Positions 8,262 to 57,676 are shown, counted from the first letter of the stretch. The stretch: DNA of 64,000 nt from an uncultured Actinomycetota bacterium (GCA_963724165.1 CAVRTL010000006.1:200466-264465), one strand, 5' to 3'. Numbers and translations are program-made. Notes: generated from the sequence alone by a model not told the origin.

Positions 8262-10217
8262 TCACGCACCCGCTCCAACCGTTGCTGCCGCCATTCTGGC
8301 GACCATCGTCTTGTCCTGCTCGATTTCGGCCAATGTTCCGCCCAGCGCGGCGTTGATGAGTCGACTCACCTCGTCGGCCAGGAACGCGACGCCCTGAACC
8401 TTGGTAACCGATTGCACGTCGACCAGGTACTTGCCGCGCAGCACCAGCGCCAGCTGACCCAGGTTCATCTCCGGCGCCACGACCTGCGGATAGCGCCGCA
8501 GCACGTCACCGAGGTTGGCCGGGAAGGGGCTGAGATAGCGCAGGTGCGCGTGCGCGACCTTGGTGCCCCTGCGCCGCGCCCGCCGGCAGGCTTCACCGAT
8601 CGGCCCATAGGAGCTGCCCCACCCGATCAGCAGCAGCTCGGCGTCTCCTGTCGGATCGTCGACCTCCAGGTCAGGCACGGAAATGCCGTCGATCTTGGCC
8701 TGGCGCAGCCGGACCATCAGGTCGTGGTTGACCGGCTCGTAGGAGATGTTGCCCGAACCGTTCGCCGCCTCCAGGCCGCCGATGCGGTGCTCGAGACCGG
8801 GCGTGCCCGGAACGGCGAACTGGCGGGCGAGCGTCTCCGGGTCGCGGGCGTAGGGCTGGAAGGGCTCGTCCGCCTTCGCGTAGGCGTGCGTGATCGGCGG
8901 CAGCGCGTCGACGTCGGGGATCCGCCAGGGCTCCGAACCGTTGGCGATCGCGCCATCGGACAACACGATCACCGGCGTGTGGTAGGAGACCGCGATGCGC
9001 ACCGCCTCGAGCGCGGTCTGGAAGCAGTCGGACGGCGTGCACGGCGCCAGCACGGCCACCGGCGATTCCCCGTTGCGGCCGTACAGCGCCTGCAGCAGGT
9101 CGGCCTGCTCGGTCTTGGTGGGCAGCCCGGTGGAGGGGCCGCCGCGCTGCACGTCGATGACGATCAACGGCAGTTCGGTCATCACGGCAAGGCCGAGCGC
9201 TTCCGACTTCAGCGAGATGCCCGGCCCCGAGGTGCTGGTCACCCCGAGCGCGCCACCGTAGGCGGCGCCGATCGCCGCGCAGATGCCGCCGATCTCGTCT
9301 TCGGCCTGGAAGGTGATGACGTCGAAGTTCTTGTGCTTGGACAGCTCGTGCAGGATGTCCGACGCGGGCGTGATCGGATAGCTGCCGAGCACGACGGGAA
9401 TGTCGGCCATCCGTCCCGCGGTGACGATGCCGTAGGCCAGCGCGGTGTTGCCCGAGATCTGCCGGTATTCACCGGCCGGCAGGTTCGCCCGTGGCACCTC
9501 GTAGCTGGTGCCGAACGCCTCGGTCGTCTCACCGTAGTTCCAGCCCGCCTTCAGGGCGAGCACGTTGGCCTCGGCGACGTCGGGCTTGCGGACGAACTTC
9601 TCCCGGATGAAGTTCTCGCTGGTCTGGATCGGCCGCCCGTACATCCACGACAGAAGGCCAAGGGCGAACATGTTTTTGGCGCGCTGGCCGTCCTTCTTGG
9701 AGGCGCCGATCGTCTCGACCGCACCGAGAGTCAGCGTGGTCATGGCGACCTGGTGCACCACGTACTCGGACAGCTCGCCGGACTCCAGTGGGTTGGTGAC
9801 GTAGCCGACCTTGGTCAGGTTGCGTTTGGTGAACTCGTCGGTGTTGACGATCACCATGCCGCCGCGCGGCAGGTCGCCGATGTTGGCCTTGAGCGCCGCC
9901 GGGTTCATCGCGACGAGGACGTCGGGCCGGTCGCCGGCGGTCAGGATGTCATGATCGGCGATCTGGATCTGGAAGGACGAGACCCCGGGCAGGGTGCCTG
10001 CCGGGGCCCGGATCTCGGCGGGGTAGTTCGGCTGGGTCGCCAGGTCGTTGCCGAAAAGCGCGGCCTCGGAGGTGAATCGGTCACCGGTCAGCTGCATGCC
10101 GTCGCCGGAGTCCCCGGCGAACCGGATCACTACTTGTTCTAGACGCTGGCGGTCGGTCCCGACGTGCGACGCCCCGCTATGAGAATCTGATCCGGCTCCG
10201 CTGCCGTTCGGATCCAC
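8262..10217 (-). CDS. korA: 2-oxoglutarate:ferredoxin oxidoreductase alpha subunit
   Basis: FAGDSGDGMQL, YPITPASD, EDEI and DVQRGGPSTG motifs. GTG start (MDPNG) follows GGGAGG. Confidence 0.95.
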   Translation of the reverse strand: MDPNGSGAGSDSHSGASHVGTDRQRLEQVVIRFAGDSGDGMQLTGDRFTSEAALFGNDLATQPNYPAEIRAPAGTLPGVSSFQIQIADHDILTAGDRPDVLVAMNPAALKANIGDLPRGGMVIVNTDEFTKRNLTKVGYVTNPLESGELSEYVVHQVAMTTLTLGAVETIGASKKDGQRAKNMFALGLLSWMYGRPIQTSENFIREKFVRKPDVAEANVLALKAGWNYGETTEAFGTSYEVPRANLPAGEYRQISGNTALAYGIVTAGRMADIPVVLGSYPITPASDILHELSKHKNFDVITFQAEDEIGGICAAIGAAYGGALGVTSTSGPGISLKSEALGLAVMTELPLIVIDVQRGGPSTGLPTKTEQADLLQALYGRNGESPVAVLAPCTPSDCFQTALEAVRIAVSYHTPVIVLSDGAIANGSEPWRIPDVDALPPITHAYAKADEPFQPYARDPETLARQFAVPGTPGLEHRIGGLEAANGSGNISYEPVNHDLMVRLRQAKIDGISVPDLEVDDPTGDAELLLIGWGSSYGPIGEACRRARRRGTKVAHAHLRYLSPFPANLGDVLRRYPQVVAPEMNLGQLALVLRGKYLVDVQSVTKVQGVAFLADEVSRLINAALGGTLAEIEQDKTMVARMAAATVGAGA

Positions 10218-44970: not shown

Positions 44971-45975
44971 CTACTGGCCGGCGTTGCGGGCCAGGTCGAT
45001 CGCGTACTGATTGACGAACGTGCCCGCCGGCGGATCACCCTTGCCGCACGTTCCGTCGGATTCACCGGGCCGTTTGATCCACAGGTAGGCGTCGGCGTGT
45101 GCGCCGCCGGTGGCCGCGGTGGGCGCAGTGCCCAGCGCCCGGCCGGCCGGGTTGCACCAGTTGAGCGCGGAGTCGGGCGCCGGTCCGGCGCCGTTGCGCG
45201 ACGTGTCGATCACATAGTGCGAACCGTTGGTGAGCCCCGAGATCGCCTCTCCGTAACCGATTTCGTCCCCGGTGGTGAAGAAGTTCGCGGTGTTGAGGCT
45301 GAAGCCCCGCGCGCGGCCGACACCGACCTGGTTGAGTCTTGCGGCCATGTCCTCGGCGCTGTGCCAGCGCAAATGACCACCGTCGACGTATACGGCCGTG
45401 GCCGGATTGCGTGTCAGCGTGTCCACGGCGTAGCGAATCAAGTCGTAGCGTTCTTGGCGCTGCGCTGCCGACAGGCAGTCGGCCATGGCGAGCGCGTCGG
45501 GTTCGAGGATGATCGCCGTTCGCGAAGCGCCCACGTCGGATGCGATGCCGTCGATCCACGCGCGGTATTGGTCGCCCGTCGCGAAGCCGCCCGCGGCGAA
45601 GCTGCCACAGTCGCGGTGCGGGATTCCGTACAGCGTCAGCACCGGGATGGCGCCGGCCGCCTGCGCGTCGCCGGTGTACTTCGCGACCGTGGCCGCGGAC
45701 GAACCCGGGACGATCCAGTACGCCTGCGGTGTGTTGGCGATGGCCGTCAGCTCCGGACTCGGCGGATCGGCGTGCTGCGCGGCGCGCATCGCAGCCGAAG
45801 CGGGATTGACATAGAACGGCGCGCCGGCCAGCGGGTTGGCCGCATCGGCCAGGCGCACCGCCGGGGCGTGGCCGACCTGCCCCGGATCGGCAACAAAGCC
45901 CAGGCCGGCGACGGTCGCAACCGTCAGGAAGGGGGCGATCCACCGCGCGACTGCACTAGCAGCTGAGAACGTCAC
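44971..45975 (-). CDS. celA: GH6 endoglucanase (CelA1/Rv0062-like)
   Basis: YGIPHRDC, ILEPDAL (catalytic acid), DGGH, NFFT, IDTSRNG and WIKRPGESDG. N-terminal signal/TM segment, no CBM. Confidence 0.92.
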   Translation of the reverse strand: MTFSAASAVARWIAPFLTVATVAGLGFVADPGQVGHAPAVRLADAANPLAGAPFYVNPASAAMRAAQHADPPSPELTAIANTPQAYWIVPGSSAATVAKYTGDAQAAGAIPVLTLYGIPHRDCGSFAAGGFATGDQYRAWIDGIASDVGASRTAIILEPDALAMADCLSAAQRQERYDLIRYAVDTLTRNPATAVYVDGGHLRWHSAEDMAARLNQVGVGRARGFSLNTANFFTTGDEIGYGEAISGLTNGSHYVIDTSRNGAGPAPDSALNWCNPAGRALGTAPTAATGGAHADAYLWIKRPGESDGTCGKGDPPAGTFVNQYAIDLARNAGQ

Positions 45976-46214
45976 CCCAGGGAAATTAGTGCTCCGGAGC
46001 ACCGAGCGCCAATCCCCGGCGGCAGCTCACCGCGCGATCTGCGCGAGGGTCGGCAAGGTGCACGACGTCCGTGGGCGAGCGGCGACCTGGCTTTGTCCGC
46101 ACCTTCCTGGGCCATGGCACCGTTCAGCGTGCCGTCGGGAAGAACGGAGAAGTCGGCCTGCACCAGCAGCGCCGGCGTGGTCGAAATCGGCGTTCCCCGC
46201 TGCCGGTTCCCCGC

Positions 46215-46571: not shown

Positions 46572-47005
46572 ATGGGACGAGCGGACGCCAAAGTGGAACT
46601 GATCAGCGGCGGCGCCAGCGGGGGGCGCCGCCCAAGCCGAGGCCCTGGCGCCGGCAGGCGCGCAGGTGGTGGTCGGTGACCTCCTCGACGGGGAGGGCGG
46701 ACGGTCACCGAACGCCTCAGCGCGGCAGCGTGTTTCATAGCGGCGTCGTCGGGCCGATGATCAACGCCGACGCCGGATCGACCGTCAACATCTCGTCCGT
46801 GCGGGGCATGGTTGCCCCCCGAACACCACGCCTACGTCGCCTCCAAGTTCGGCCTCCGCGGCCAAGGCTGCCGCGATAGAGCTGCCCGCCAACGGAATTC
46901 GGGGTTTTAGCCGCGTGCGTGCTCTTCCTCGTCACCGACGAGTCGTCCTATGCCACCGGGGCGGAGTTCGTCGTCTACGGCGGCTCGACCAGCTATGTAC
47001 CGGTC
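46572..47005 (+). pseudogene. Fragmented SDR dehydrogenase (3-alpha/20-beta-HSD-like)
   Basis: Fragments in shifting frames: MGRADAKVELISGGAS, AQVVVGDLLDGEG, GSTVNISS, YVASKFGLRG (YxxxK at 46833-47) and [20 protein letters not shown]. Confidence 0.8.
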
Positions 47006-47042
47006 TGGAACACGATCCTGGCCGCGCAGTACTCTGACGGCA

Positions 47043-47813
47043 ATGACCGCCACCGAACCCGTGCTCGTCCACGTCGACAACCACGTCGCCCTCATCACCG
47101 TCAACGATCCCGACCGGCGCAACGCGGTGACCGCCGAGATGTCGGCACAGCTGCGCGCCGCGGTGGAGCGAGCCGAAGACGACGCCGACGTGCACGCCGT
47201 GGTGGTAACCGGGGCGGGCAAGGCCTTCTGCGCCGGCGCCGACCTGAGCGCGCTGGGCTCCGCTGGCACCGAGGGGGCGGAGTCCGGCCTGCAGCGGCTG
47301 TACGACGGCTTCATGGCCGTCGGCAACTGCCGCCTGCCCACCATCGCCGCGGTCAATGGCGCGGCCGTCGGCGCAGGGCTGAACCTGGCGCTGGCCGCCG
47401 ACGTGCGCATCGCCGGGCCGGCCGCCCTGTTCGACGCCCGATTCCAGAAGCTCGGGCTGCATCCCGGCGGCGGCGCGACCTGGATGCTGCAGCGCGCGGT
47501 GGGCCCGCAGGTCGCCCGCGCGGCGCTGCTGTTCGGCATGCGCTTCGACGCCGAAGCCGCCGTGCGCCACGGCTTGGCGCTCAGCGTCGCCGACGATCCG
47601 GTCGCCGCCGCGCTCGAACTGGCTGCCGGTCCGGCGGACGCCCCGCGTGACGTGGTGCTGGCGACCAAGGCCACCATGCGCGCCACCGCCAGCCCGGGAG
47701 CGCTCGACAACGAGCAACACGAATTCGCCATGCGGACCGAGTTGGGGCCGCAGGCGCACACCATCCAATCACCGGAGTTCGCAAGCAGGTTGGCCGCCGC
47801 CCGGCGACGGTAG
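47043..47813 (+). CDS. echA14: Enoyl-CoA hydratase EchA14
   Basis: [29 protein letters not shown] and HPGGG. TACTCT -10 7 nt before the ATG. Confidence 0.88.
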
Positions 47814-47877
47814 TGGTCGCACCGCACCCGAAAAAACTTGCGTCACTGTGGTTTCAGTGGTCACAAGGCGGGGTTTC

Positions 47878-47906: not shown

Positions 47907-49283
47907 GTGAGTGTTGATCGCGACGCGTTGACCGCGGACTGGGCGGCGCTGGAAGCCGCCTTGGCCGCGGTGGCCGGCCACGACTGCGCCGCGCTGACCA
48001 CGCCCGAGTTGCTGGCCTGGCTGGCCCAGGTGGAAAAGCTGCGCCGCCGCCTGCCCGCTCTCGAGCACACCGTGATCAACACCCTGGCCCGCCAGGCCAC
48101 CCCGGAAGAATTGGGCGGCAAGCTCTCCCACGCCATCGCCGAAGCCACACTCATTTCGCGCAAGCAAGCCGCCCGCCGCATCGCTGAGGCCGCCGACCTG
48201 GGACCCCGCCACGGGCTGACCGGCGAACCCCTGCCCCCGGTGTTGGCCGAGACCGCCCAGCGCCAGCGCCAGGGCACCCTGGGTTCCGAACACGTCACCG
48301 TGATCCGCAACTTTTCTCACCGGTTGCCCGGGTGGGTCGACCAAACCACCCGCGAGCGCGCCGAAGCCGACCTGGCCAAATTGGGCGAAGACATCCGTCC
48401 CGAAGAACTGGCCGGGCTGGCCGACAAACTCGACAACACCATCAACCCCGACGGCAACTACACCGACGACGACCGCGCCCGCCGGCGCGGGGTGATCCTG
48501 GGCGCCCAAGGTCCGGACACAATGTCGCGCCTGAGCGGCTGGATCACCCCGGAACTACGCGCCACGATCGAGGCCGTATTCGCCAAACTTGCCGCGCCGG
48601 GCATGTGCAACAACCTCGACGAAAGACCCTGCATCGACGGGACACCGAATCAAGAGGCCATCGAGGGCGACACCCGTGGACCGGCCCAACGCCAACACGA
48701 CGCCCTGCTCGCCGGCCTACGCGCGCTGCTGGCCTCCGGAGACCTCGGCCAGCACAACGGGTTACCCGCCTCGATCATCGTCACCACGACATTGGCCGAC
48801 CTGCAGTCGGCCGCCGGGTGCGGGTTGACGGGCGGGGGTTCCCTGCTGCCGATAAGCGACGTGATCCGCCTGGCCCGCCACGCCCGCCACTACCTGGTGA
48901 TCTTCGACAAAGGCAAAGCCCTGGCCCTCTACCACACCAAACGCCTGGCCTCCCCGGCCCAACGGATCGTGTTGTACGGCAAAGACCGCGGCTGCAGCGC
49001 CCCGGGCTGCACCGTGGGGGGCTACTACTGCGAAGTCCACCACGTCATCCCCTACGCGAAATCCGGGCGCACCGACATCAACGAGTTGACCTTCGGCTGC
49101 GGCGGGCACCACCCGATCACCGAAAAAGGCTGGACCACCCGCACAAACACCATCGGCGAAACCGAATGGATCCCACCGCCACACCTGGATCGCGGCCAAC
49201 CCCGCACCAACACCTACTGGCACCCCGAAAAACTCCTCCGCAACGACGACGACGAAGGCGACGAAAGTGATTGCGGCAGTTAG
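47907..49283 (+). mobile_element. DUF222/HNH protein of the REP13E12 repeat family
   Basis: [51 protein letters not shown] and [21 protein letters not shown]. Confidence 0.9.
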
Positions 49284-50098
49284 CCCGTGGCTTCACCCGC
49301 CCGCCGCAGCAGCATTGCCGCGTGCTTGAGCACCGGGGAGTCGACCATCTGCCCCTCGAACGCGAAGACCCCGCGCTCGTTCTGGGCCGCCGCCGAGACC
49401 CTGCGCGCCCAGTCGAGTTTCTCCTCGCTGGGCCGGTAGGCCTCGCGCACCACCGCCACCTGGGTGGGGTGGATGCACACGGTCCCGTCGAACCCCACTG
49501 CGACGCCGTCGTCGGCCTCGGCCCGCAGGCCGTCGAGGTCGCGGATGTCCAAATGCACGGCGTCCAAGGCGATCCGGCCGAACGCCGACGCCGCCAGCAG
49601 CGCAGTGGATCGCACATGCCGGGCGACATCGCGATACCCGCCGTCGGCGCGCCGGCTGGAGCTGCCACCGAGGTCGGCCACCAAGTCCTCGGCGCCCCAC
49701 ATCAGCGCGACCGTCCCGTCGGCCGCGGCGATCTCTCTGGCGAACACCGCTCCCCGCGGCGTCTCGATCAGCGCGACGACGTCGCGCGGCGCCAGCGCGC
49801 TCACCTGGGCCGCCGATTCGGTCTTGGACAGCATCACCGTCGTGTACGCGGTGTCGGCCAGAGCCGCCAAGTCCAACGGGTGCTCGTCGGTGTCGGCCGC
49901 GTTGATCCGCACCACGGTGCGCTCGGGGTCCAGCGGGGTGTCCCGCAGTGCCTCGCGGGCCGCGGCCTTATCAGCCTGGGCGACACCGTCTTCGAGGTCG
50001 AGGATCACCACGTCGGCCGCGTCGGCTGCCTTGGCGAAGCGCTCGGGACGGTCGGCCGGGCAGAACAACCAGGCCGGGCCGGCGGCGCGCAGGTTCAT
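49280..50098 (-). CDS. citE: CitE-family acyl-CoA lyase (Rv2498c-like)
   Basis: [30 protein letters not shown] and CIHPTQV. Start is MNLRAAG. Confidence 0.93.
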
Positions 50099-50589
50099 CG
50101 TCCGCCCTCCGAGTCCGGCCGCTTCTGCACCAGGGTGGTCCGCACCGCCCGCGCCACGACGTCGCCGTGCTGGTTGCGGCCGGTGTGCTCGAGGGTGACG
50201 ATGCCTTCGCCTGGGCGGCTTTTCGACTCGCGCTTGGCGGTGCACACGGTCTCCGCGTACAGGGTGTCGCCGTGAAAGACCGGCTTGGGGAACGACACCT
50301 CCGAGAAGCCGAGGTTGGCGACAATGGTGCCCAGCGTCAGCTGCGACACCGACAACCCCACCAGCGTAGAGAGGGTGAACATGGAGTTCACCAGCCGCTC
50401 TCCCCCGAACCCCGGCTGCTCGGCGGCCCACGCCGCATCGAGGTGCAGCGACTGGGTGTTCATCGTCAGCGTGGTGAACAACACGTTGTCGGCCTCGGTG
50501 ACGGTGCGGCCGGGCCGGTGCTGGTAGGTGGTGCCGATCTCGAACTCCTCGAACCACAAGCCGCGCTGAATGATCGACCTGCCGCTCAC
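50095..50589 (-). CDS. MaoC-family dehydratase (Rv2499c-like)
   Basis: [20 protein letters not shown] and PVFHGDT. GTG start overlaps the fadE19 stop. Confidence 0.9.
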
Positions 50590-51749
50590 GACAGCCCCAG
50601 CGATCGCGCGATGAGCATCAGTTGCACCTCGGTAGTGCCCTCCCCTATCTCGAGGATCTTGCTGTCGCGGTAGTGCCGCGCCACCGGATACTCGTTCATG
50701 AAGCCGTATCCGCCGTGGATCTGGGTGGCATCGCGGGCGTTGTCCATCGCCGCCTCGGACGCGATCATCTTGGCGATCGCCGCCTCCTTCTTGAAGGGCT
50801 TGCCGGCCAACATCTTCGCGGCCGCATCGTAGTACGCCGTACGGGCCACGTGGGCACGGGCCTCCATCCGCGCGATCTTGAAGCTGATCGCCTGGTAGGA
50901 GCCGATCGGCTGGCCGAATGACTGCCGCTCGTTGGCGTACTTGACGCTCTCGTCGACGCAGCCCTGCGCCGCGCCGGTGGCCAGGGCGGCGATGGCGATG
51001 CGGCCCTCGTCGAGGATGGACAGGAAGTTTGCGTAGCCGGTCCCGCGGGCGCCCAGCAGGTTCTCGTCGGGCACCCGGGCGTCGGCGAAGGTCAGCGGGT
51101 GCGTGTCCGACGCGTTCCAGCCGACCTTGTTGTAGACCGGTTCGACGGTGAATCCCGTTGTGCCGCTGGGCACGATGATCGTCGAGATCTCCTTCTTGCC
51201 ACCGTCCAGCGTCCCGGTGACCGCGGTGACGGTGACCAGCGAGGTGATGTCGGTGCCGGAGTTGGTGATGAACTGCTTGCTGCCGTTGATCACCCACTCC
51301 CCGTCGTCGAGGCGGGCCGTGGTGCGGGTGGCACCCGCATCGGAGCCGGCGCCCGGCTCGGTCAGCCCGAACCCGGCCAGCGCGCGGCCGGCCGTCAGGT
51401 CCGGCAGCCACCGACTCTTCTGTTCTTCGGTGCCGAACCGGTAGATCGGCATCGCGCCGAGGCTGACGCCGGCCTCGAGCGTGATCGCCACCGACTGGTC
51501 GACCTTGCCCAGTTCCTCCAACGCCAAAGACAGCGCGAAGTAGTCGCCGCCCATGCCGCCGTACTCCTCGGGGAACGGCAGCCCGAACAGCCCCATCTCG
51601 CCCATCTTGGCCACGACTTCGTACGGGAAGCTGTGCTCCTCATCGTGTTTCGCCGAGACCGGGGCGACCACTGTGCGCGCGAAGTCGGCCACCGTGGCCC
51701 GCAGGTCTTCGTATTCCTTGGGTAATGTTCCCGCGGTAATTGTCGTCAT
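50586..51749 (-). CDS. fadE19: Acyl-CoA (isovaleryl-CoA-type) dehydrogenase FadE19
   Basis: [25 protein letters not shown] and QIHGGYG...IGEGT. Confidence 0.93.
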
Positions 51750-53719
51750 GATTCCTGATCCTTAATCCGCGCCAGCACCTGGTCGACTTTGACTTGGTCG
51801 CCGACGGACACCAGCACCTCCACCTGTCCGGCAGCCGGGGCGGCCAGCGAATGTTCCATCTTCATCGCCTCGACGACCACCACCACGTCGCCCTCGGCAA
51901 CCTCGGCGCCGGGCTCGACCTGAACGGCGATCACGCTGCCGGGCATCGGGCTGACGATGTCGGCCTGTCGCACGCCCGCCGCGCGGTGAATCTTTTGCTC
52001 CTCGGCCTCCCGCAGGTGCCAGGCGCCGCGCTCGTCGGCGATCCACAGGTGACGGCCCGCCTCGGCCCACACGTAGTCGCGCCGCACTCCGCCCAGCGTC
52101 ACGGTGAGCCGCGTACCATCGAGCTCGGCACTGGCAGAACGGGTCTCACCGTCACCGACCCGCACCTCGGCCGCATCGGGTGGTCCCCACACCGAGACCG
52201 TCTCGGTGCGCAGCGCGGTGTGCATCTCGGTGCGAACCGGCGCCGCACCCCCACCGATCCGCCATCCGGTCGGCACCGCCCACGGGTTGGCGCCGGCGTC
52301 CCGGGCAATTCCGCACTGCCGGTAGAGACCCCCGGCGGCCAGCACATCGTCGGGCGGGGCCAGCGGCGCGAAGTCCGCCACCCGCTCGTCCAGTAACCCG
52401 GTATCGAGGTCACCGGCGCGCACCCGCTCGTCGGCCAGCAGGAACCGGAGGAACTCGATGTTGGTCTGCACGCCCAGAACCGCAGTCTGTGCCAGCGCCC
52501 GGTCGAGCGTTGCCAGCGCCTCGTCACGGTCGGCCCCGTGGGCGATCACCTTGCTCAGCATCGGGTCGTAGTCGCTGCCTACCACGGTGCCGGCCAGCAG
52601 CGAGGAGTCCACCCGCACGCCGGCGCCCGACGGCTCGAGCACCTCCAGCACCCGCCCGCCGGTGGGCAGGAACCCGCGGGCCGGGTCCTCGGCGTACACC
52701 CGGGCCTCGATCGCGTGGCCGCGCAGCTCGACGTCGTCCTGGGCGAAAGCCAGCTTCTCGCCCGCGGCCACCCGCAGCTGCCACTCGACGAGGTCCAGGC
52801 CGGTCACCGCCTCGGTGACCGGATGCTCCACCTGCAGGCGGGTGTTCATCTCCATGAAGAAGAACTCGTCCGGGCGCTCGGCGGAAACGATGAACTCGAC
52901 CGTGCCGGCGCCGACGTAATCGACGCTGCGGGCGGTGTTGCACGCCGCCGCCCCGATGCGGGCCCGGGTCTGCTGGTCGAGCAGCGGCGAGGGCGCCTCC
53001 TCGATGACCTTCTGATGGCGCCGCTGCAGACTGCACTCCCGCTCGCCGAGGTGGACGACGCTGCCGTGGGCGTCGGCGAGCACCTGCACCTCGATGTGCC
53101 TGGGCCGCAACACGAAACGCTCCATGAACAGCGTGTCGTCGCCGAACGAGGACGCGGCTTCGCGGCGGGCGCTCACCAGCGCGTCGCGCAGCCGGGCCGG
53201 GTCGTCGACCAGCCGCATGCCCTTGCCGCCGCCACCGGCGGACGGCTTGATCAGCACCGGGTAGCCGATCTCGTCGGCCGCCGCGGCGAGCTGCTCGTCG
53301 GTCAGCCCGGGCTTGGCCACGCCGGGCACCACCGGAACGTCGAAGGCGGCGACGGTGTTCTTGGCGGCGATCTTGTCGCCCATCACCTCGATGGCACGGG
53401 CCGGCGGTCCCAGGAACACCACCCCGGCGCGATCGCAGGCGGCGGCGAAAGCCGCGTTCTCGGAGAGGAATCCGTAGCCGGGGTGGATCGCCTGGGCGCC
53501 GGTGCGCGCGGCCGCGTCGAGCACCTTGGCGATGTCCAGGTAACTCTCGCGCGCCGGCGCCGGGCCCAGCCGGACGGCCGTATCGGCCTCACGCACGTGA
53601 CGTGCCTGCGCGTCGGGATCGCTGTAGACGGCGACCGACCGGATGCCCAGCCGGCGCAGGGTCCGGATCACCCGCACCGCGATCTCGCCGCGGTTGGCCA
53701 CCAACACGGTTTCGAACAT
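51746..53719 (-). CDS. accA1: 3-methylcrotonyl-CoA carboxylase alpha (BC/BCCP)
   Basis: [34 protein letters not shown] and biotin site EAMKME. An alternative GTG at 53743 is coupled to the accD1 stop. Confidence 0.94.
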
Positions 53720-53739
53720 TCCCGTCACATCCATTGCCG

Positions 53740-55326
53740 TCACATCCGGAAGACGCCGTAGGAGACCGGTTCCAGCGGCGCGTGGGCGCACGCGGAAAGC
53801 GCGAGCCCGACAACCATTCTGGTATCGGCCGGGTCGATGATCCCGTCGTCCCACAGCCGGGCCGTCGAATAGTACGGGTTGCCCTGGTCCTCGTACTGCT
53901 CGCGGATGGGCGCCTTGAACGATTCCTCCTCGTCGGACGACCATGGTTTACCCGCCGCGGACAGTTGTTCGCCGCGCACGGTGGCCAGCACCGACGCGGC
54001 CTGCTCGCCGCCCATCACCGAGATCCGCGCGTTGGGCCACATCCACAAAAAGCGCGGCGAATACGCCCGGCCACACATCGAATAGTTACCCGCGCCATAG
54101 GATCCGCCGATCACCACGGTCAGCTTGGGCACCCGGGCGCAGGCCACCGCGGTGACCATCTTGGCGCCGTGCTTGGCGATCCCACCGGCCTCGTAGTCGC
54201 GGCCGACCATGAACCCGGCGATGTTCTGTAAAAACAGCAGCGGGATCCTGCGCTTGTCGCACAACTCGATGAAATGCGCCCCCTTCAACGCCGATTCCCC
54301 GAAGAGCACGCCGTTGTTGGCGATGATCCCGACGGGGTGGCCGTGGATGCGCGCGAAGGCCGTCACCAGGGTCTTGCCGTAATTGGCCTTGAACTCGCTG
54401 AAGGCCGACCCGTCGACCAGCCGGACGATCACCTCGTGCACGTCGTAGGGCACCCGCGGATCGGGGGGCACGACGTCGTAGAGCTCGGCCTGGGCGTGCC
54501 TGGGCTCGACCGGCGCGCGCACCTCCCATTGGCCGGGCTCCCGCGGGCCGAAGGTGGCCACGATGTCGCGGACGATGCGCAGCGCGTGCTCGTCGTCGTC
54601 GGCGAGGTGGTCGGTGACACCGGAAACCCGCGAGTGCAGGTCGCCGCCGCCGAGCTCTTCGGCCGAGACGATCTCGCCGGTGGCGGCCTTGACCAGCGGC
54701 GGCCCGCCCAAAAAGATGGTGCCCTGCTCGCGGACGATGACGGCCTCGTCGCTCATCGCCGGCACGTAGGCCCCGCCCGCCGTGCAGGAGCCGAGCACGG
54801 CGGCCACCTGCGGAATGCCTTGGGCGCTCATGGTGGCCTGGTTGTAGAAGATCCGGCCGAAATGCTCGCGGTCGGGGAATACCTCGTCCTGCCGGGGCAG
54901 GAACGCACCCCCTGAGTCGACCAGGTAGATGCACGGCAGCCGATTGTGCAGTGCGACTTCCTGCGCGCGCAGGTGCTTTTTGACCGTCATCGGGTAGTAG
55001 GTGCCGCCCTTGACGGTGGCGTCGTTGGCGACGACGACGCATTCGCGGCGCGCGACCCGGCCGACACCGGTGATGATCCCCGCCCCGGGGGATTCGTCGT
55101 CGTACATTCCGTTGGCGGCCAACGGGGTCAACTCCAAGAATGGGGTGCCCGGATCGAGCAGCCGGTCCACCCGTTCGCGGGGCAGCAGCTTGCCGCGGCT
55201 GACGTGGCGTTCCCGCGCCCGCTCGTTACCGCCCAGGGCGGCCGCCGCCAGCTTGGCGTTCAACTCCTCGACCAGCCGGCGGTGCTCGTCCGCGAACGAG
55301 GGCGCCGTCATCACAGACGAACTCAC
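53740..55326 (-). CDS. accD1: 3-methylcrotonyl-CoA carboxylase beta (carboxyltransferase)
   Basis: [34 protein letters not shown] and MCGRAY. Confidence 0.95.
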
Positions 55327-55973
55327 GAAAGCCTCCCGGTGGTCGCCAGTACTAGGGGCGGTTCCGTTTTATCCTGCACCTCGTCGACCGAGACGTCGGG
55401 CGCGGTCTCGACCAGGTGCAGGCCGTCCTCGCGGACGTCGATGACGGCCAGGTTGGTGATGATGCGGTCCACGCAGGCCACACCGGTCAACGGAAGCGTG
55501 CACCGCTCAACGACTTTCGGGCTGCCGTCGCGGGCTGTGTGCTCCATCATCACGATCACCTGGCGGGCGCCGTGCACCAGGTCCATCGCCCCGCCCATGC
55601 CCTTGACCATGGCGCCGGGGATCATCCAGTTGGCCAAATCGCCGCTCGCCGAGACCTGCATGGCGCCGAGCACCGCGACGTCGAGGTGCCCGCCCCGAAT
55701 GATGCCGAAGGAGGTCGAGGAGCCGAAGAACGCGGCGCCGGGCAGCGTGGTCACCGTCTCCTTGCCCGCGTTGATCAGGTCGGCGTCAACGTCCTCGCGG
55801 CGGGGATACGGCCCGACGCCCAGAATCCCGTTCTCCGAATGCACGACGACGGTGACGCCGTCGGGAATGTGGTTGGGCACCAACGTGGGCATGCCGATGC
55901 CGAGGTTGACGTACTGCCCATCCTCGAATTCGGCGGCCACCCGCGCGGCCAACGCGTCACGGTCCCAACTCAT
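55323..55973 (-). CDS. scoB: CoA-transferase beta subunit
   Basis: [12 protein letters not shown] (catalytic Glu), [10 protein letters not shown] and GMGGAMDL. Confidence 0.95.
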
Positions 55974-56050
55974 CTGGCGCCGCTCTCCCCCGCAAGCGGG
56001 AGGTGCCCCCACCTCATCGCTACGCTCTGCATCGTCGCCGGCGTGCTCAT
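55970..56050 (-). repeat. Single long-type MIRU encoding a 26-aa linker ORF
   Basis: ATG overlaps the scoA TGA. Encodes [26 protein letters not shown], whose TGA overlaps the scoB ATG (81 nt). Confidence 0.9.
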
Positions 56051-56799
56051 TCGGCCCGCACCGTCACCTTCTCGATCCGCTTGGCTGGGTTGGGCGCGTG
56101 CACGATTCGCTGCACGAAGATGCCGGGCGTGTGCACCGCGGCAGGCTCGACCTCGCCGGGTTCGACGAGATGCTCGACCTCGGCGATCGTGATCGCGCCG
56201 GCCTGGGCGCAGTCCGGGTTGAAGTTCGCGGCGGACTCGCGGTAGACGAGGTTGCCATGCCGGTCGCCCTTCCAGGCGTGCACCAGCGCGAAGTCGGTGC
56301 GGATCGCCCGCTCGAGAACGTAGGTGGCGCCGTCGAACTCTCGGGTCTCCTTGGGCGGCGACACCACCGCCACCGCGCCGGAGGCGTCGTAGCGCAACGG
56401 CAGTCCGCCGTCGGCGACCGCGGTGCCCACCCCGGCGGCGGTGTAGAAGGCCGGTATGCCCATTCCGCCGGCGCGCAACCGCTCGGCCAGCGTGCCCTGC
56501 GGTATGAGCTCCACCTCGAGCTCGCCGGCCAGGAATTGCCGGGCGAATTCCTTGTTGTCACCCACATAGGAGGCGATGGCGCGGCGAATCCTGTTGTGCT
56601 GCAGCAGCATACCCAGCCCGACACCGTTCGCGCCGCCGCAGTTGTTCGACACCGTCTCCAGGCCGCACACCCCACTGTCGACCAGCGCCGCGATCAGCGC
56701 CTCGGGGATGCCGCAGAAGCCGAACCCGCCGACCGCCAGCGAGGAGCCGTCGGTTATGTCAGCGACGGCTTCAGCGGCCGTCGCCACCACCTTGTCCAT
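56047..56799 (-). CDS. scoA: CoA-transferase alpha subunit
   Basis: [29 protein letters not shown] and HTPGIFV. Confidence 0.95.
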
Positions 56800-56840
56800 C
56801 GCCGCAGCAGCCTCCTTGCCGTCCGGGCGGTCCGGAATTC

Positions 56841-56858
56841 AGTTAATCTTCATTAACT
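56841..56858. promoter_or_regulatory. BkaR operator 1
   Basis: Perfect inverted repeat AGTTAAT-cttc-ATTAACT, fitting GTTA-N8-TAAC. Confidence 0.82.
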
Positions 56859-56970
56859 CAAGGCGGAGAATACCACCGCGTCCACCGCCGCGTCCAGGCT
56901 GGGAACAGCCGCTCCGCCAGGGTCACGCGCGCTCGATCGCACGGAAACGCACCGCCGCCGGCGCGTGCTA

Positions 56971-56988
56971 GGTTAGTGGCGATTAACC
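56971..56988. promoter_or_regulatory. BkaR operator 2
   Basis: GGTTAGT-ggcg-ATTAACC, upstream of the TetR gene. Confidence 0.78.
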
Positions 56989-57019
56989 GGATGGACGAGT
57001 TGTGCGCGGGAGGTGCGTC

Positions 57020-57676
57020 GTGACGGCGTCCGACCCGCATAGCCAGACCGGCGATCCGGACACCCCAAATCGTCGCAGCCGGTTGAAATCCGACCGGCGC
57101 ATGCAGCTCTTGGCCGCTGCCGAGCGGCTGTTCGCCGAACGCGGCTTCCTGGCGGTACGGCTGGAAGACATCGGCGCTGCGGCCGGTGTCAGCGGTCCCG
57201 CCATCTATCGCCACTTCCCCAACAAGGAGTCGATGCTGGTCGAACTGCTGGTCGGGATCAGTGCCCGCCTGCTGGCCGGGGCCCGCGACGTGACGGCTCG
57301 CAGCGCCGCCGCGGCCGACGCACTGGACGGACTCATCGATTTCCACCTCGACTTCGCCTTCGGTGAGCCCGACCTGATCCGCATTCAGGACCGCGACCTG
57401 GCGCACCTACCTGAGGCTGCCGAAAAGCAGGTCCGCAAGGCGCAGCGCCAGTACGTCGAGGTCTGGGTCGCGGTGCTGCGCGAACTGAACCCCGAGTTGG
57501 TCGAGGCCGATGCCCGGCTGGCGGCCCATGCGGTGTTCGGTCTGCTGAATTCGACGCCGCACAGCATGAAGTCCCCCGACAATTCGCGCGCCAAGCCCGG
57601 ACGCACGTCGAGGTCGCGTGCCGTCATGCGGGCGATGACCGTCGCCGCCCTGCGGGCGGGGAATCAGTGCCCCTGA
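57020..57676 (+). CDS. bkaR: TetR repressor BkaR (Rv2506-like)
   Basis: HTH AAERLFAERGF...EDIGAAAGVSGPAIYRHFPNKE. Divergent from scoA. GGGAGG SD. Confidence 0.9.
   Translation: MTASDPHSQTGDPDTPNRRSRLKSDRRMQLLAAAERLFAERGFLAVRLEDIGAAAGVSGPAIYRHFPNKESMLVELLVGISARLLAGARDVTARSAAAADALDGLIDFHLDFAFGEPDLIRIQDRDLAHLPEAAEKQVRKAQRQYVEVWVAVLRELNPELVEADARLAAHAVFGLLNSTPHSMKSPDNSRAKPGRTSRSRAVMRAMTVAALRAGNQCP

Follow-up and report, generated by a model that had tools for sequence, protein, structure and literature searches.

The 64-kb window analysed here (64,000 nucleotides from the genome of an uncultured Actinomycetota bacterium, GCA_963724165.1 CAVRTL010000006.1:200466-264465) carries an operon of the type controlled by the TetR-family repressor BkaR in Mycobacterium tuberculosis, and we consider it very likely that this is a reduced but working BkaR-repressed operon which came about through ordinary, recurrent modular gene loss. 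In the window, bkaR (+ strand) is divergent from scoA-scoB-accD1-accA1-fadE19-maoC-citE (- strand), and a repeat encoding DUF222 and HNH domains abuts the citE stop codon. This order had been claimed in the initial annotation of the sequence and is confirmed by Pfam matches and frame reading. A TetR-family regulator divergent from an accD1-accA1-fadE19-citE operon is the arrangement of the BkaR regulon, which in M. tuberculosis consists of Rv2506 with Rv2505c-Rv2495c (fadD35, scoA, scoB, accD1, accA1, fadE19, Rv2499c, citE, bkdA, bkdB and bkdC). The divergent TetR regulator, the 16-bp operator core, the order from scoA to citE and the operators at scoA and next to bkaR are common to both. Unlike the M. 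tuberculosis regulon, the window has neither fadD35, the gene with which that regulon begins, nor the second of the operators between bkaR and fadD35, and its operon does not end in bkdABC, the last three genes, which encode E1 alpha, E1 beta and E2 of a branched-chain keto-acid dehydrogenase (BCKDH); the interval between citE and the next gene, encoding an enoyl-coenzyme A (CoA) hydratase, holds a REP13E12-type repeat alone.

The control region is well preserved. The gap between scoA and bkaR measures 202 bp, rather than the ~220 bp first given, and the two operators described as intact are indeed present as two exact GTTA-N8-TAAC sites, against 0.01 expected from shuffles of the window. The whole 5.65-Mb assembly contains eight such sites, of which only the two in the scoA-bkaR gap fit the refined BkaR operator core, GTTA-N-T-N4-A-N-TAAC (PMC3920632). 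Read in operon orientation, the 16-mer on the scoA side recurs without any change upstream of the scoA genes of M. gastri, M. interjectum and M. sp. E787, and the bkaR-proximal site is matched next to bkaR in all relatives checked. The scoA motif of M. tuberculosis was bound by BkaR in an electrophoretic mobility shift assay (PMC3920632). Judged by these matches, the predicted operators of the window are the counterparts of the bkaR-proximal and scoA operators of M. tuberculosis and not of the pair in its bkaR-fadD35 gap, and they now lie side by side because fadD35 is absent. The operon of M. smegmatis (MSMEG_4718, with accD1-bkdC as MSMEG_4717-4710) likewise has two operators in one short divergent gap and no fadD35, but it has kept bkdABC and lacks scoAB, the reverse of what is found in the window (PMC3920632).

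To look for the missing genes, the complete locus of M. gastri (L066; loci and contigs are designated L and C) supplied fadD35, bkdA, bkdB and bkdC as queries against the whole assembly, which is 98.97% complete and consists of 21 contigs. No orthologue of fadD35 was found in it, the best match being 58% identical (contig C3), and none of bkdA, bkdB or bkdC, with best matches of 43% (E 1.5e-84), 56% and 37%, all on contigs C16/C18. The same queries retrieve true orthologues in relatives at 77-85% for fadD35, bkdA and bkdB and 62-69% for bkdC. With thresholds of at least ~66% for BCKDH (within the genus) and, for fadD35, of at least ~70% or a position between bkaR and scoA, neither a BCKDH (Rv2497c-Rv2495c) nor a fadD35 (Rv2505c) orthologue was found in the window genome. 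The C3 gene was considered as a relocated fadD35 and rejected: M. interjectum carries a 79% orthologue of it in addition to its own fadD35, so the C3 gene is a separate paralogue. Only some relatives have this paralogue (C3:201688-203298; L090:6689-8305), whose neighbours are genes of the redoxin and DJ-1/PfpI families. A bkdABC block relocated under a BkaR operator was also rejected, since none of the eight GTTA-N8-TAAC sites lies near the E1 alpha clusters on C16/C18, C5 or C19. The absence of both fadD35 and an M. tuberculosis-type bkdABC, as originally noted, is thus borne out at the locus and in the assembly; of the accompanying suggestion that the entry step to isovaleryl-CoA was either lost or relocated, the loss of these genes is supported, and no bkdABC relocated under BkaR control was found.

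To place this reduction in context, 80 loci consisting of citE and 10 kb on either side, taken from slow-growing mycobacteria and allied taxa, were scored gene by gene, and nearly every combination of presence and absence of fadD35, scoAB and bkdABC was seen among them. The carboxylase, dehydrogenase, hydratase and lyase genes are found at all but one of the related loci covering them, and the bkaR product of the window is 69-89% identical to the divergent regulator at every related locus. On an operon tree of accD1-citE DNA from 71 sequences (70 loci and the window), the full type was counted 14 times, fadD35 and scoAB without bkd 14 times, scoAB with bkd 12 times, bkd only 11 times and the core only six times; scoAB without fadD35 and bkd, the layout of the window, also occurs six times including the window itself. 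The others are L069 (Mycobacterium sp. 1423905.2), L084 (Mycolicibacter sinensis) and the metagenome-assembled genomes from soil L010, L041 and L073. At L069, L084, L041 and L073, as in the window, bkaR faces scoAB-accD1-accA1-fadE19-hydratase-citE and both fadD35 and bkdABC are absent within 10 kb; unlike the window, none has the repeat in the slot, and they branch elsewhere on the operon tree. L010 has the same layout but with bkdB fragments and bkdC ~2 kb downstream. Since the loci with this layout sit on different branches, it arose independently, and by Fitch parsimony the minimum number of changes on the operon tree is 11 for fadD35, eight for scoAB and nine for bkd.

Remnants of the lost genes tell how they disappeared. 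The last 47 codons of bkdC are kept directly after citE in L078 (10855-10995), and the bkdB fragments and bkdC of L010 (10883-14223) also follow citE. Stubs of scoA and scoB lie between the bkaR-side operator and accD1; among the scoAB-less loci L022 retains scoA residues 14-103 and a scoB tail, L050 scoA 1-86 with scoB 182-229, L037 scoA 1-44 and L020 scoA 1-32, while L049 and L058 have scoB tails only. Stubs with such differing breakpoints indicate that the losses are deletions and that they are independent. Where bkd is missing, the next conserved gene lies anywhere from 6 bp to several kb away from citE. In one pair of very close strains, IS-836 (L054) has bkdABC after citE and IS-1264 (L047) does not; IS-1264 carries its bkdA orthologue (83%) at another place, apparently ~76 kb away on the contig that also holds citE, which is relocation and not loss. 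Beyond the citE loci, a whole-genome bkdA search in 150 genomes of the genus, each at least 90% complete, found an orthologue (66-94% identity) in 105 and none in 45 (~30%). These figures and the exact recurrence of the layout in L010, L041, L069, L073 and L084 give no support to its being special: the window operon is a common reduced variant of a known operon and a routine difference in gene content. In these sequence comparisons, fadD35, scoAB and bkdABC behave as separable modules that were lost repeatedly around a conserved core. Variability of fadD35 and scoAB has already been reported by Balhana et al. (PMC3920632). We found no published description of the frequent absence of bkdABC, which follows directly from public genomes.

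Comparison with M. helveticum, the sister of the window on the operon tree (support 1.0), allows the two losses to be placed in order. The M. helveticum contig carrying citE ends 133 bp past this gene, inside the 3' end of the repeat, with 86% identity to the window across the junction, and on another M. helveticum contig the alignment is unbroken between the hydratase gene and the first 270 bp of the element. No bkdA orthologue was found in the M. helveticum genome, where the best match is 44%. As both junctions are common to the two genomes and bkdA is missing from both, the bkd-less, repeat-filled slot predates their split. M. helveticum, like most of the surrounding clade, has fadD35. Alignment of the window gap to the M. 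helveticum sequence stops 48 bp short of fadD35 and starts again at the last codon of that gene, leaving out 1,685 bp (L032 1576-3260), so a nearly exact deletion of ~1.7 kb occurred later, in the window lineage. The possibility raised earlier that the layout is ancestral for the clade therefore largely applies to the slot, which the window has in common with M. helveticum, and not to fadD35, whose loss is more recent. We propose that the bkdABC block between citE and the convergent enoyl-CoA hydratase gene was lost before the M. helveticum split, and that the REP13E12-type DUF222/HNH repeat came to occupy its slot, also before the split. After it, the ~1.7-kb deletion would have taken fadD35 almost exactly and joined the two operators in a single divergent region.

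What remains of the operon appears to be maintained. All eight genes are intact, and the ratio of nonsynonymous to synonymous substitution rates (dN/dS) between the window and M. helveticum is 0.05-0.22 (0.047 for fadE19); such low values in all eight genes of two bkd-less genomes imply continued selection on the lower pathway. As the initial annotation had it, the lower leucine pathway persists together with a CoA-transferase, hydratase and lyase trio, and genes for a class I CoA-transferase, a MaoC-type hydratase and an HpcH/CitE-type lyase are encoded together. In M. tuberculosis the Rv2498c lyase acts in both leucine catabolism and itaconate dissimilation (PMC6689899), and the Rv2503c transferase and Rv2499c hydratase take part in itaconate dissimilation (PMC11789021). 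The window keeps positional orthologues of all three members of this itaconate module, intact and under purifying selection, with the same function predicted here. Going by orthology with M. tuberculosis, BkaR would repress its own gene and scoA-citE via the two palindromes; upon derepression, FadE19, AccA1/AccD1, the MaoC-like hydratase and CitE would take isovaleryl-CoA to acetyl-CoA and acetoacetate. Acetoacetate set free by the lyase would also be activated by a succinyl-CoA:3-ketoacid transferase, a step for which ScoAB is the presumed enzyme, and ScoAB, the hydratase and CitE may in addition dissimilate itaconate. Isovaleryl-CoA would then come from some route other than the BCKDH and FadD35 of the operon, or the module may now serve mainly for itaconate and short acyl-CoA salvage. 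On this basis we infer a module for isovaleryl-CoA and itaconate salvage under BkaR control.

The role of the repeat in the loss of bkdABC deserves separate consideration. In nearly all relatives the bkdABC slot lies between citE and the conserved enoyl-CoA hydratase gene, which is directly convergent with bkdC or, at loci that lack bkdABC, with citE. In the window the repeat fills this slot, beginning 15 bp past the hydratase stop codon and ending ~15 bp before that of citE. The genome has nine copies; the eight others are 83-89% identical to it at the DNA level and have in common a 5' end at ~47828 and a 3' end at ~49255-49265 (window coordinates). They are found on C4, C5, C6 (two), C19 (three) and C21, several directly after the stop codon of a neighbouring gene, and the 5' end is near-identical (GAAA-A/T-NACTT...) in all copies except that on C5, which diverges there. 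DUF222 and HNH domains in one open reading frame (ORF) of ~450 amino acids, dispersed in multiple copies with common ends, are the characters of the REP13E12 family, to which we take the repeat to belong on the basis of its Pfam family. It resembles REP13E12 of M. tuberculosis in its ~1.4-kb DUF222/HNH ORF, its multicopy state (nine) and its defined shared ends.

The repeat was suggested at the outset to mark the end of the deletion, and it may do so. A stronger version of this idea, in which an element already present in the space from bkdC to the hydratase gene set off a deletion next to it that ended exactly at its own 3' end, is in our view unlikely. In L049 and L058, which have bkd, the same element in the same orientation does separate bkdC from the hydratase gene, with a fragment there in L055, and an L058-like ancestor minus the citE-bkdA spacer and bkdABC would give exactly the arrangement of the window, where the 3' end of the element comes so close to the citE stop codon. 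However, the slot is free of the element in most bkd-less loci, at least 15 in number, so that it is not required for bkd loss. The L049 and L058 copies are only 73-75% identical to that of the window, below the 83-89% among paralogues within the genome, and consequently do not establish that the insertions are orthologous. Furthermore, since L042 has a citE/hydratase junction as tight as 6 bp without any element, insertion into an emptied slot explains the tight fit equally well. Two histories thus fit equally well, one in which an L058-like ancestor lost the citE-bkdA spacer and bkdABC as far as the end of the element, and one in which the repeat inserted into an emptied junction of the L042 type.

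If bkdABC is gone, another enzyme may have taken over, and a KorAB or pyruvate dehydrogenase (PDH)-type complex had been named as a possible substitute. The genome does contain a PDH-type complex and KorA, both of which could in principle act in this way. The window itself has a korA-type 2-oxoacid:ferredoxin oxidoreductase gene at ~8760-9398 (- strand; POR_N 8.6e-60), and a second POR-type ORF, of 1206 amino acids, is found on C19 (C19:457145-457837). Three other E1 alpha/beta sets occur in the genome, on C5, C19 and C16/C18. The C5 pair was rejected as a BCKDH, as it has no E2 and lies among lipid-type genes (a short-chain dehydrogenase/reductase, an acyl-CoA synthetase and a family III CoA-transferase); on C19, a PDH "y-type" E1 is accompanied by an E2. 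The C16/C18 set is an 8.5-kb cassette (C18:23770-29692 and C16:1-8500; L007 and L091) with genes for a TetR regulator, an amidohydrolase, a phenylalanine-dehydrogenase-like protein, E1 alpha, E1 beta, E2 and E3. The end of C18 and the start of C16 had to be considered as two copies of the cluster; they are the same 5.9-kb region assembled twice (98.45% identity, 17 gaps) and not a duplication. This overlap consists of error-prone contig ends, and the E1 beta gene is frameshifted in one of the two copies. Mis-binned DNA was dismissed as an origin of the cassette. The cassette sits at a conserved chromosomal site, and M. helveticum, a species without it, is the closest match to its flank (86%), as it is to the remainder of the genome.

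That this cassette, KorAB or another oxidoreductase has replaced the lost BCKDH we regard as quite unlikely. The cassette encodes a complete 2-oxoacid dehydrogenase complex that belongs to the genome, its E1 alpha scores 408.9 bits on TIGR03181, a model that also names M. gastri BkdA, and its relatives are named 2-oxoisovalerate dehydrogenase or branched-chain keto-acid dehydrogenase in their sources; an amino-acid dehydrogenase gene lies next to it, and the two oxidoreductase genes also speak for such a replacement. On the other hand, that adjacent dehydrogenase matches Rhodococcus L-phenylalanine dehydrogenase (PDB 1BW9/1C1D) at E 6e-147 and leucine dehydrogenases only at ~5e-62 or weaker, so phenylpyruvate is the more likely substrate, and the cassette is probably a phenylalanine/phenylpyruvate route judging from sequence similarity. 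Its distribution also argues against a replacement: the cassette occurs in six of the 150 other genus genomes, five of which also have bkdA, M. europaeum and M. scrofulaceum carry both it and bkdABC, and it is absent from M. helveticum and three other bkd-less genomes. The genome-wide scan for GTTA-N8-TAAC found no BkaR operator at the cassette. As a general BCKDH substitute it was therefore downgraded, there being no association with bkd loss and its partner gene being phenylalanine-dehydrogenase-like; it is a rare accessory island and not a systematic replacement.

The reverse polarity, in which the short layout is ancestral and other lineages acquired fadD35 and bkdABC as inserted cassettes, is very unlikely. 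Fitch parsimony on the operon tree rooted on a Mycolicibacter-like group does return a bkd-less root, and the absence of fadD35 and scoAB from M. smegmatis, Rhodococcus and Nocardia (PMC3920632) means that these were gained at some point. However, bkdABC follows citE in those same three groups (PMC3920632), the bkdC and bkdB stubs after citE in L078 and L010 show deletion, and the window gap matches both flanks of the fadD35 that M. helveticum and most of the surrounding clade possess. It is highly improbable that bkdABC and/or fadD35 are present in the organism and merely missing from the assembly, on an unbinned contig or in a gap, for although 21 contigs and the imperfect C18/C16 overlap show the assembly to be unfinished and bkdA has moved away from citE in IS-1264 and probably in L081, completeness is 98.97%, the citE-repeat-hydratase junction sits within a 530-kb contig, both junctions recur in M. 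helveticum, a cultured sister species in which a bkdA orthologue was likewise not found, and 30% of the sampled genus is without bkdA.

Some points nevertheless weigh against our interpretation of a reduced, working operon produced by modular loss. With the assembly in 21 contigs, a relocated bkdABC may be on an unbinned contig, and relocation does occur, as shown by Mycobacterium sp. IS-1264, where bkdA is not within the 10 kb examined downstream of citE and apparently lies elsewhere on that contig. The proposed order of events is read from the gene tree of the operon itself and not from a species tree, and support is only 0.50 at the node where M. sp. 050134 joins the pair formed by the window and M. 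helveticum. Loss of bkdABC before the insertion of the repeat and the opposite order fit equally well. BkaR binding, operon expression and enzyme activities in the window organism are predicted from orthology.

The genes and other features of the locus (Table 1) were called from an ORF listing, Pfam scans and six-frame reading of the 64-kb window. The longest ORF of accA1 has 732 codons, and the first Pfam domain starts only at residue 76, so that the true start is probably near 53734-53743; a methylcrotonyl-CoA carboxylase BT domain is among the Pfam matches of this gene. At nearly all related loci the positional counterpart of the MaoC-like hydratase is 88-96% identical to it (78% in M. tilburgii). 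A minus-strand ORF at 46907-47827 was discarded as the neighbouring gene, as it has no Pfam match and the plus-strand enoyl-CoA hydratase gene is the real one. About 1 kb past the latter lies a glycoside hydrolase family 6 (cellulase-type) ORF (44971-46002, - strand; Pfam 4.3e-60).

Table 1. Features of the BkaR locus in window coordinates (aa, amino acids; BCCP, biotin carboxyl carrier protein).
Feature	Position	Strand	Description
bkaR, TetR-family repressor gene	57002-57676	+	224 aa; Pfam TetR_N 4.8e-18 and TetR_C_24
bkaR-proximal BkaR operator (predicted)	56972-56987		Exact GTTA-N8-TAAC, 16-bp palindromic core
scoA-proximal BkaR operator (predicted)	56842-56857		Exact GTTA-N8-TAAC
scoA, CoA-transferase subunit A	56047-56799	-	Pfam CoA_trans 7.9e-78; one copy in genome
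scoB, CoA-transferase subunit B	55323-56012	-	Pfam CoA_trans 1.2e-53
accD1, carboxyltransferase subunit of methylcrotonyl-CoA carboxylase	53740-55326	-	Pfam Carboxyl_trans 2.3e-155; 88-95% identity to orthologues
accA1, biotin carboxylase/BCCP subunit	51746-~53740 (longest ORF to 53944)	-	Pfam CPSase_L_D2, Biotin_carb_N/C, BT_MCC_alpha, Biotin_lipoyl
fadE19, isovaleryl-CoA-type acyl-CoA dehydrogenase	50586-51749	-	Pfam Acyl-CoA_dh N/M/C; 97% identity to M. helveticum
MaoC-like hydratase (Rv2499c position)	50095-50589	-	164 aa; frame reading and positional identity to relatives
citE (Rv2498c position), beta-hydroxyacyl-CoA lyase	49280-50098	-	272 aa; Pfam HpcH_HpaI 4.4e-29 and C-C_Bond_Lyase
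REP13E12-type repeat element (presumed family), ~1.43 kb	~47828 to ~49255-49283	+	Pfam DUF222 (PF02720) 2.9e-101; HNH (PF01844) 4.4e-4, just under cut-off
DUF222+HNH ORF	47907-49283	+	458 aa; convergent with citE, stop codons overlap
Enoyl-CoA hydratase gene, conserved far edge of bkdABC slot	46950-47813	+	Pfam ECH_1 2.5e-48

In M. tuberculosis the BkaR operon ties leucine catabolism to resistance against the macrophage metabolite itaconate. The module-wise loss seen around a retained core helps to define the indispensable part of the operon. A broader and more doubtful proposition, which we offer tentatively, is that about one third of mycobacterial species, that of the window among them, keep a BkaR-controlled pathway from isovaleryl-CoA to acetoacetate, under strong purifying selection and without a BCKDH of the known type; it might be fed by an unrecognised enzyme (a 2-oxoacid:ferredoxin oxidoreductase or another E1/E2), or its main role might be the salvage of itaconate and short acids, and the REP13E12/HNH element may also promote adjacent deletions. 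Cultured bkd-less species such as M. helveticum are natural knock-outs in which the source of isovaleryl-CoA can be asked about directly.

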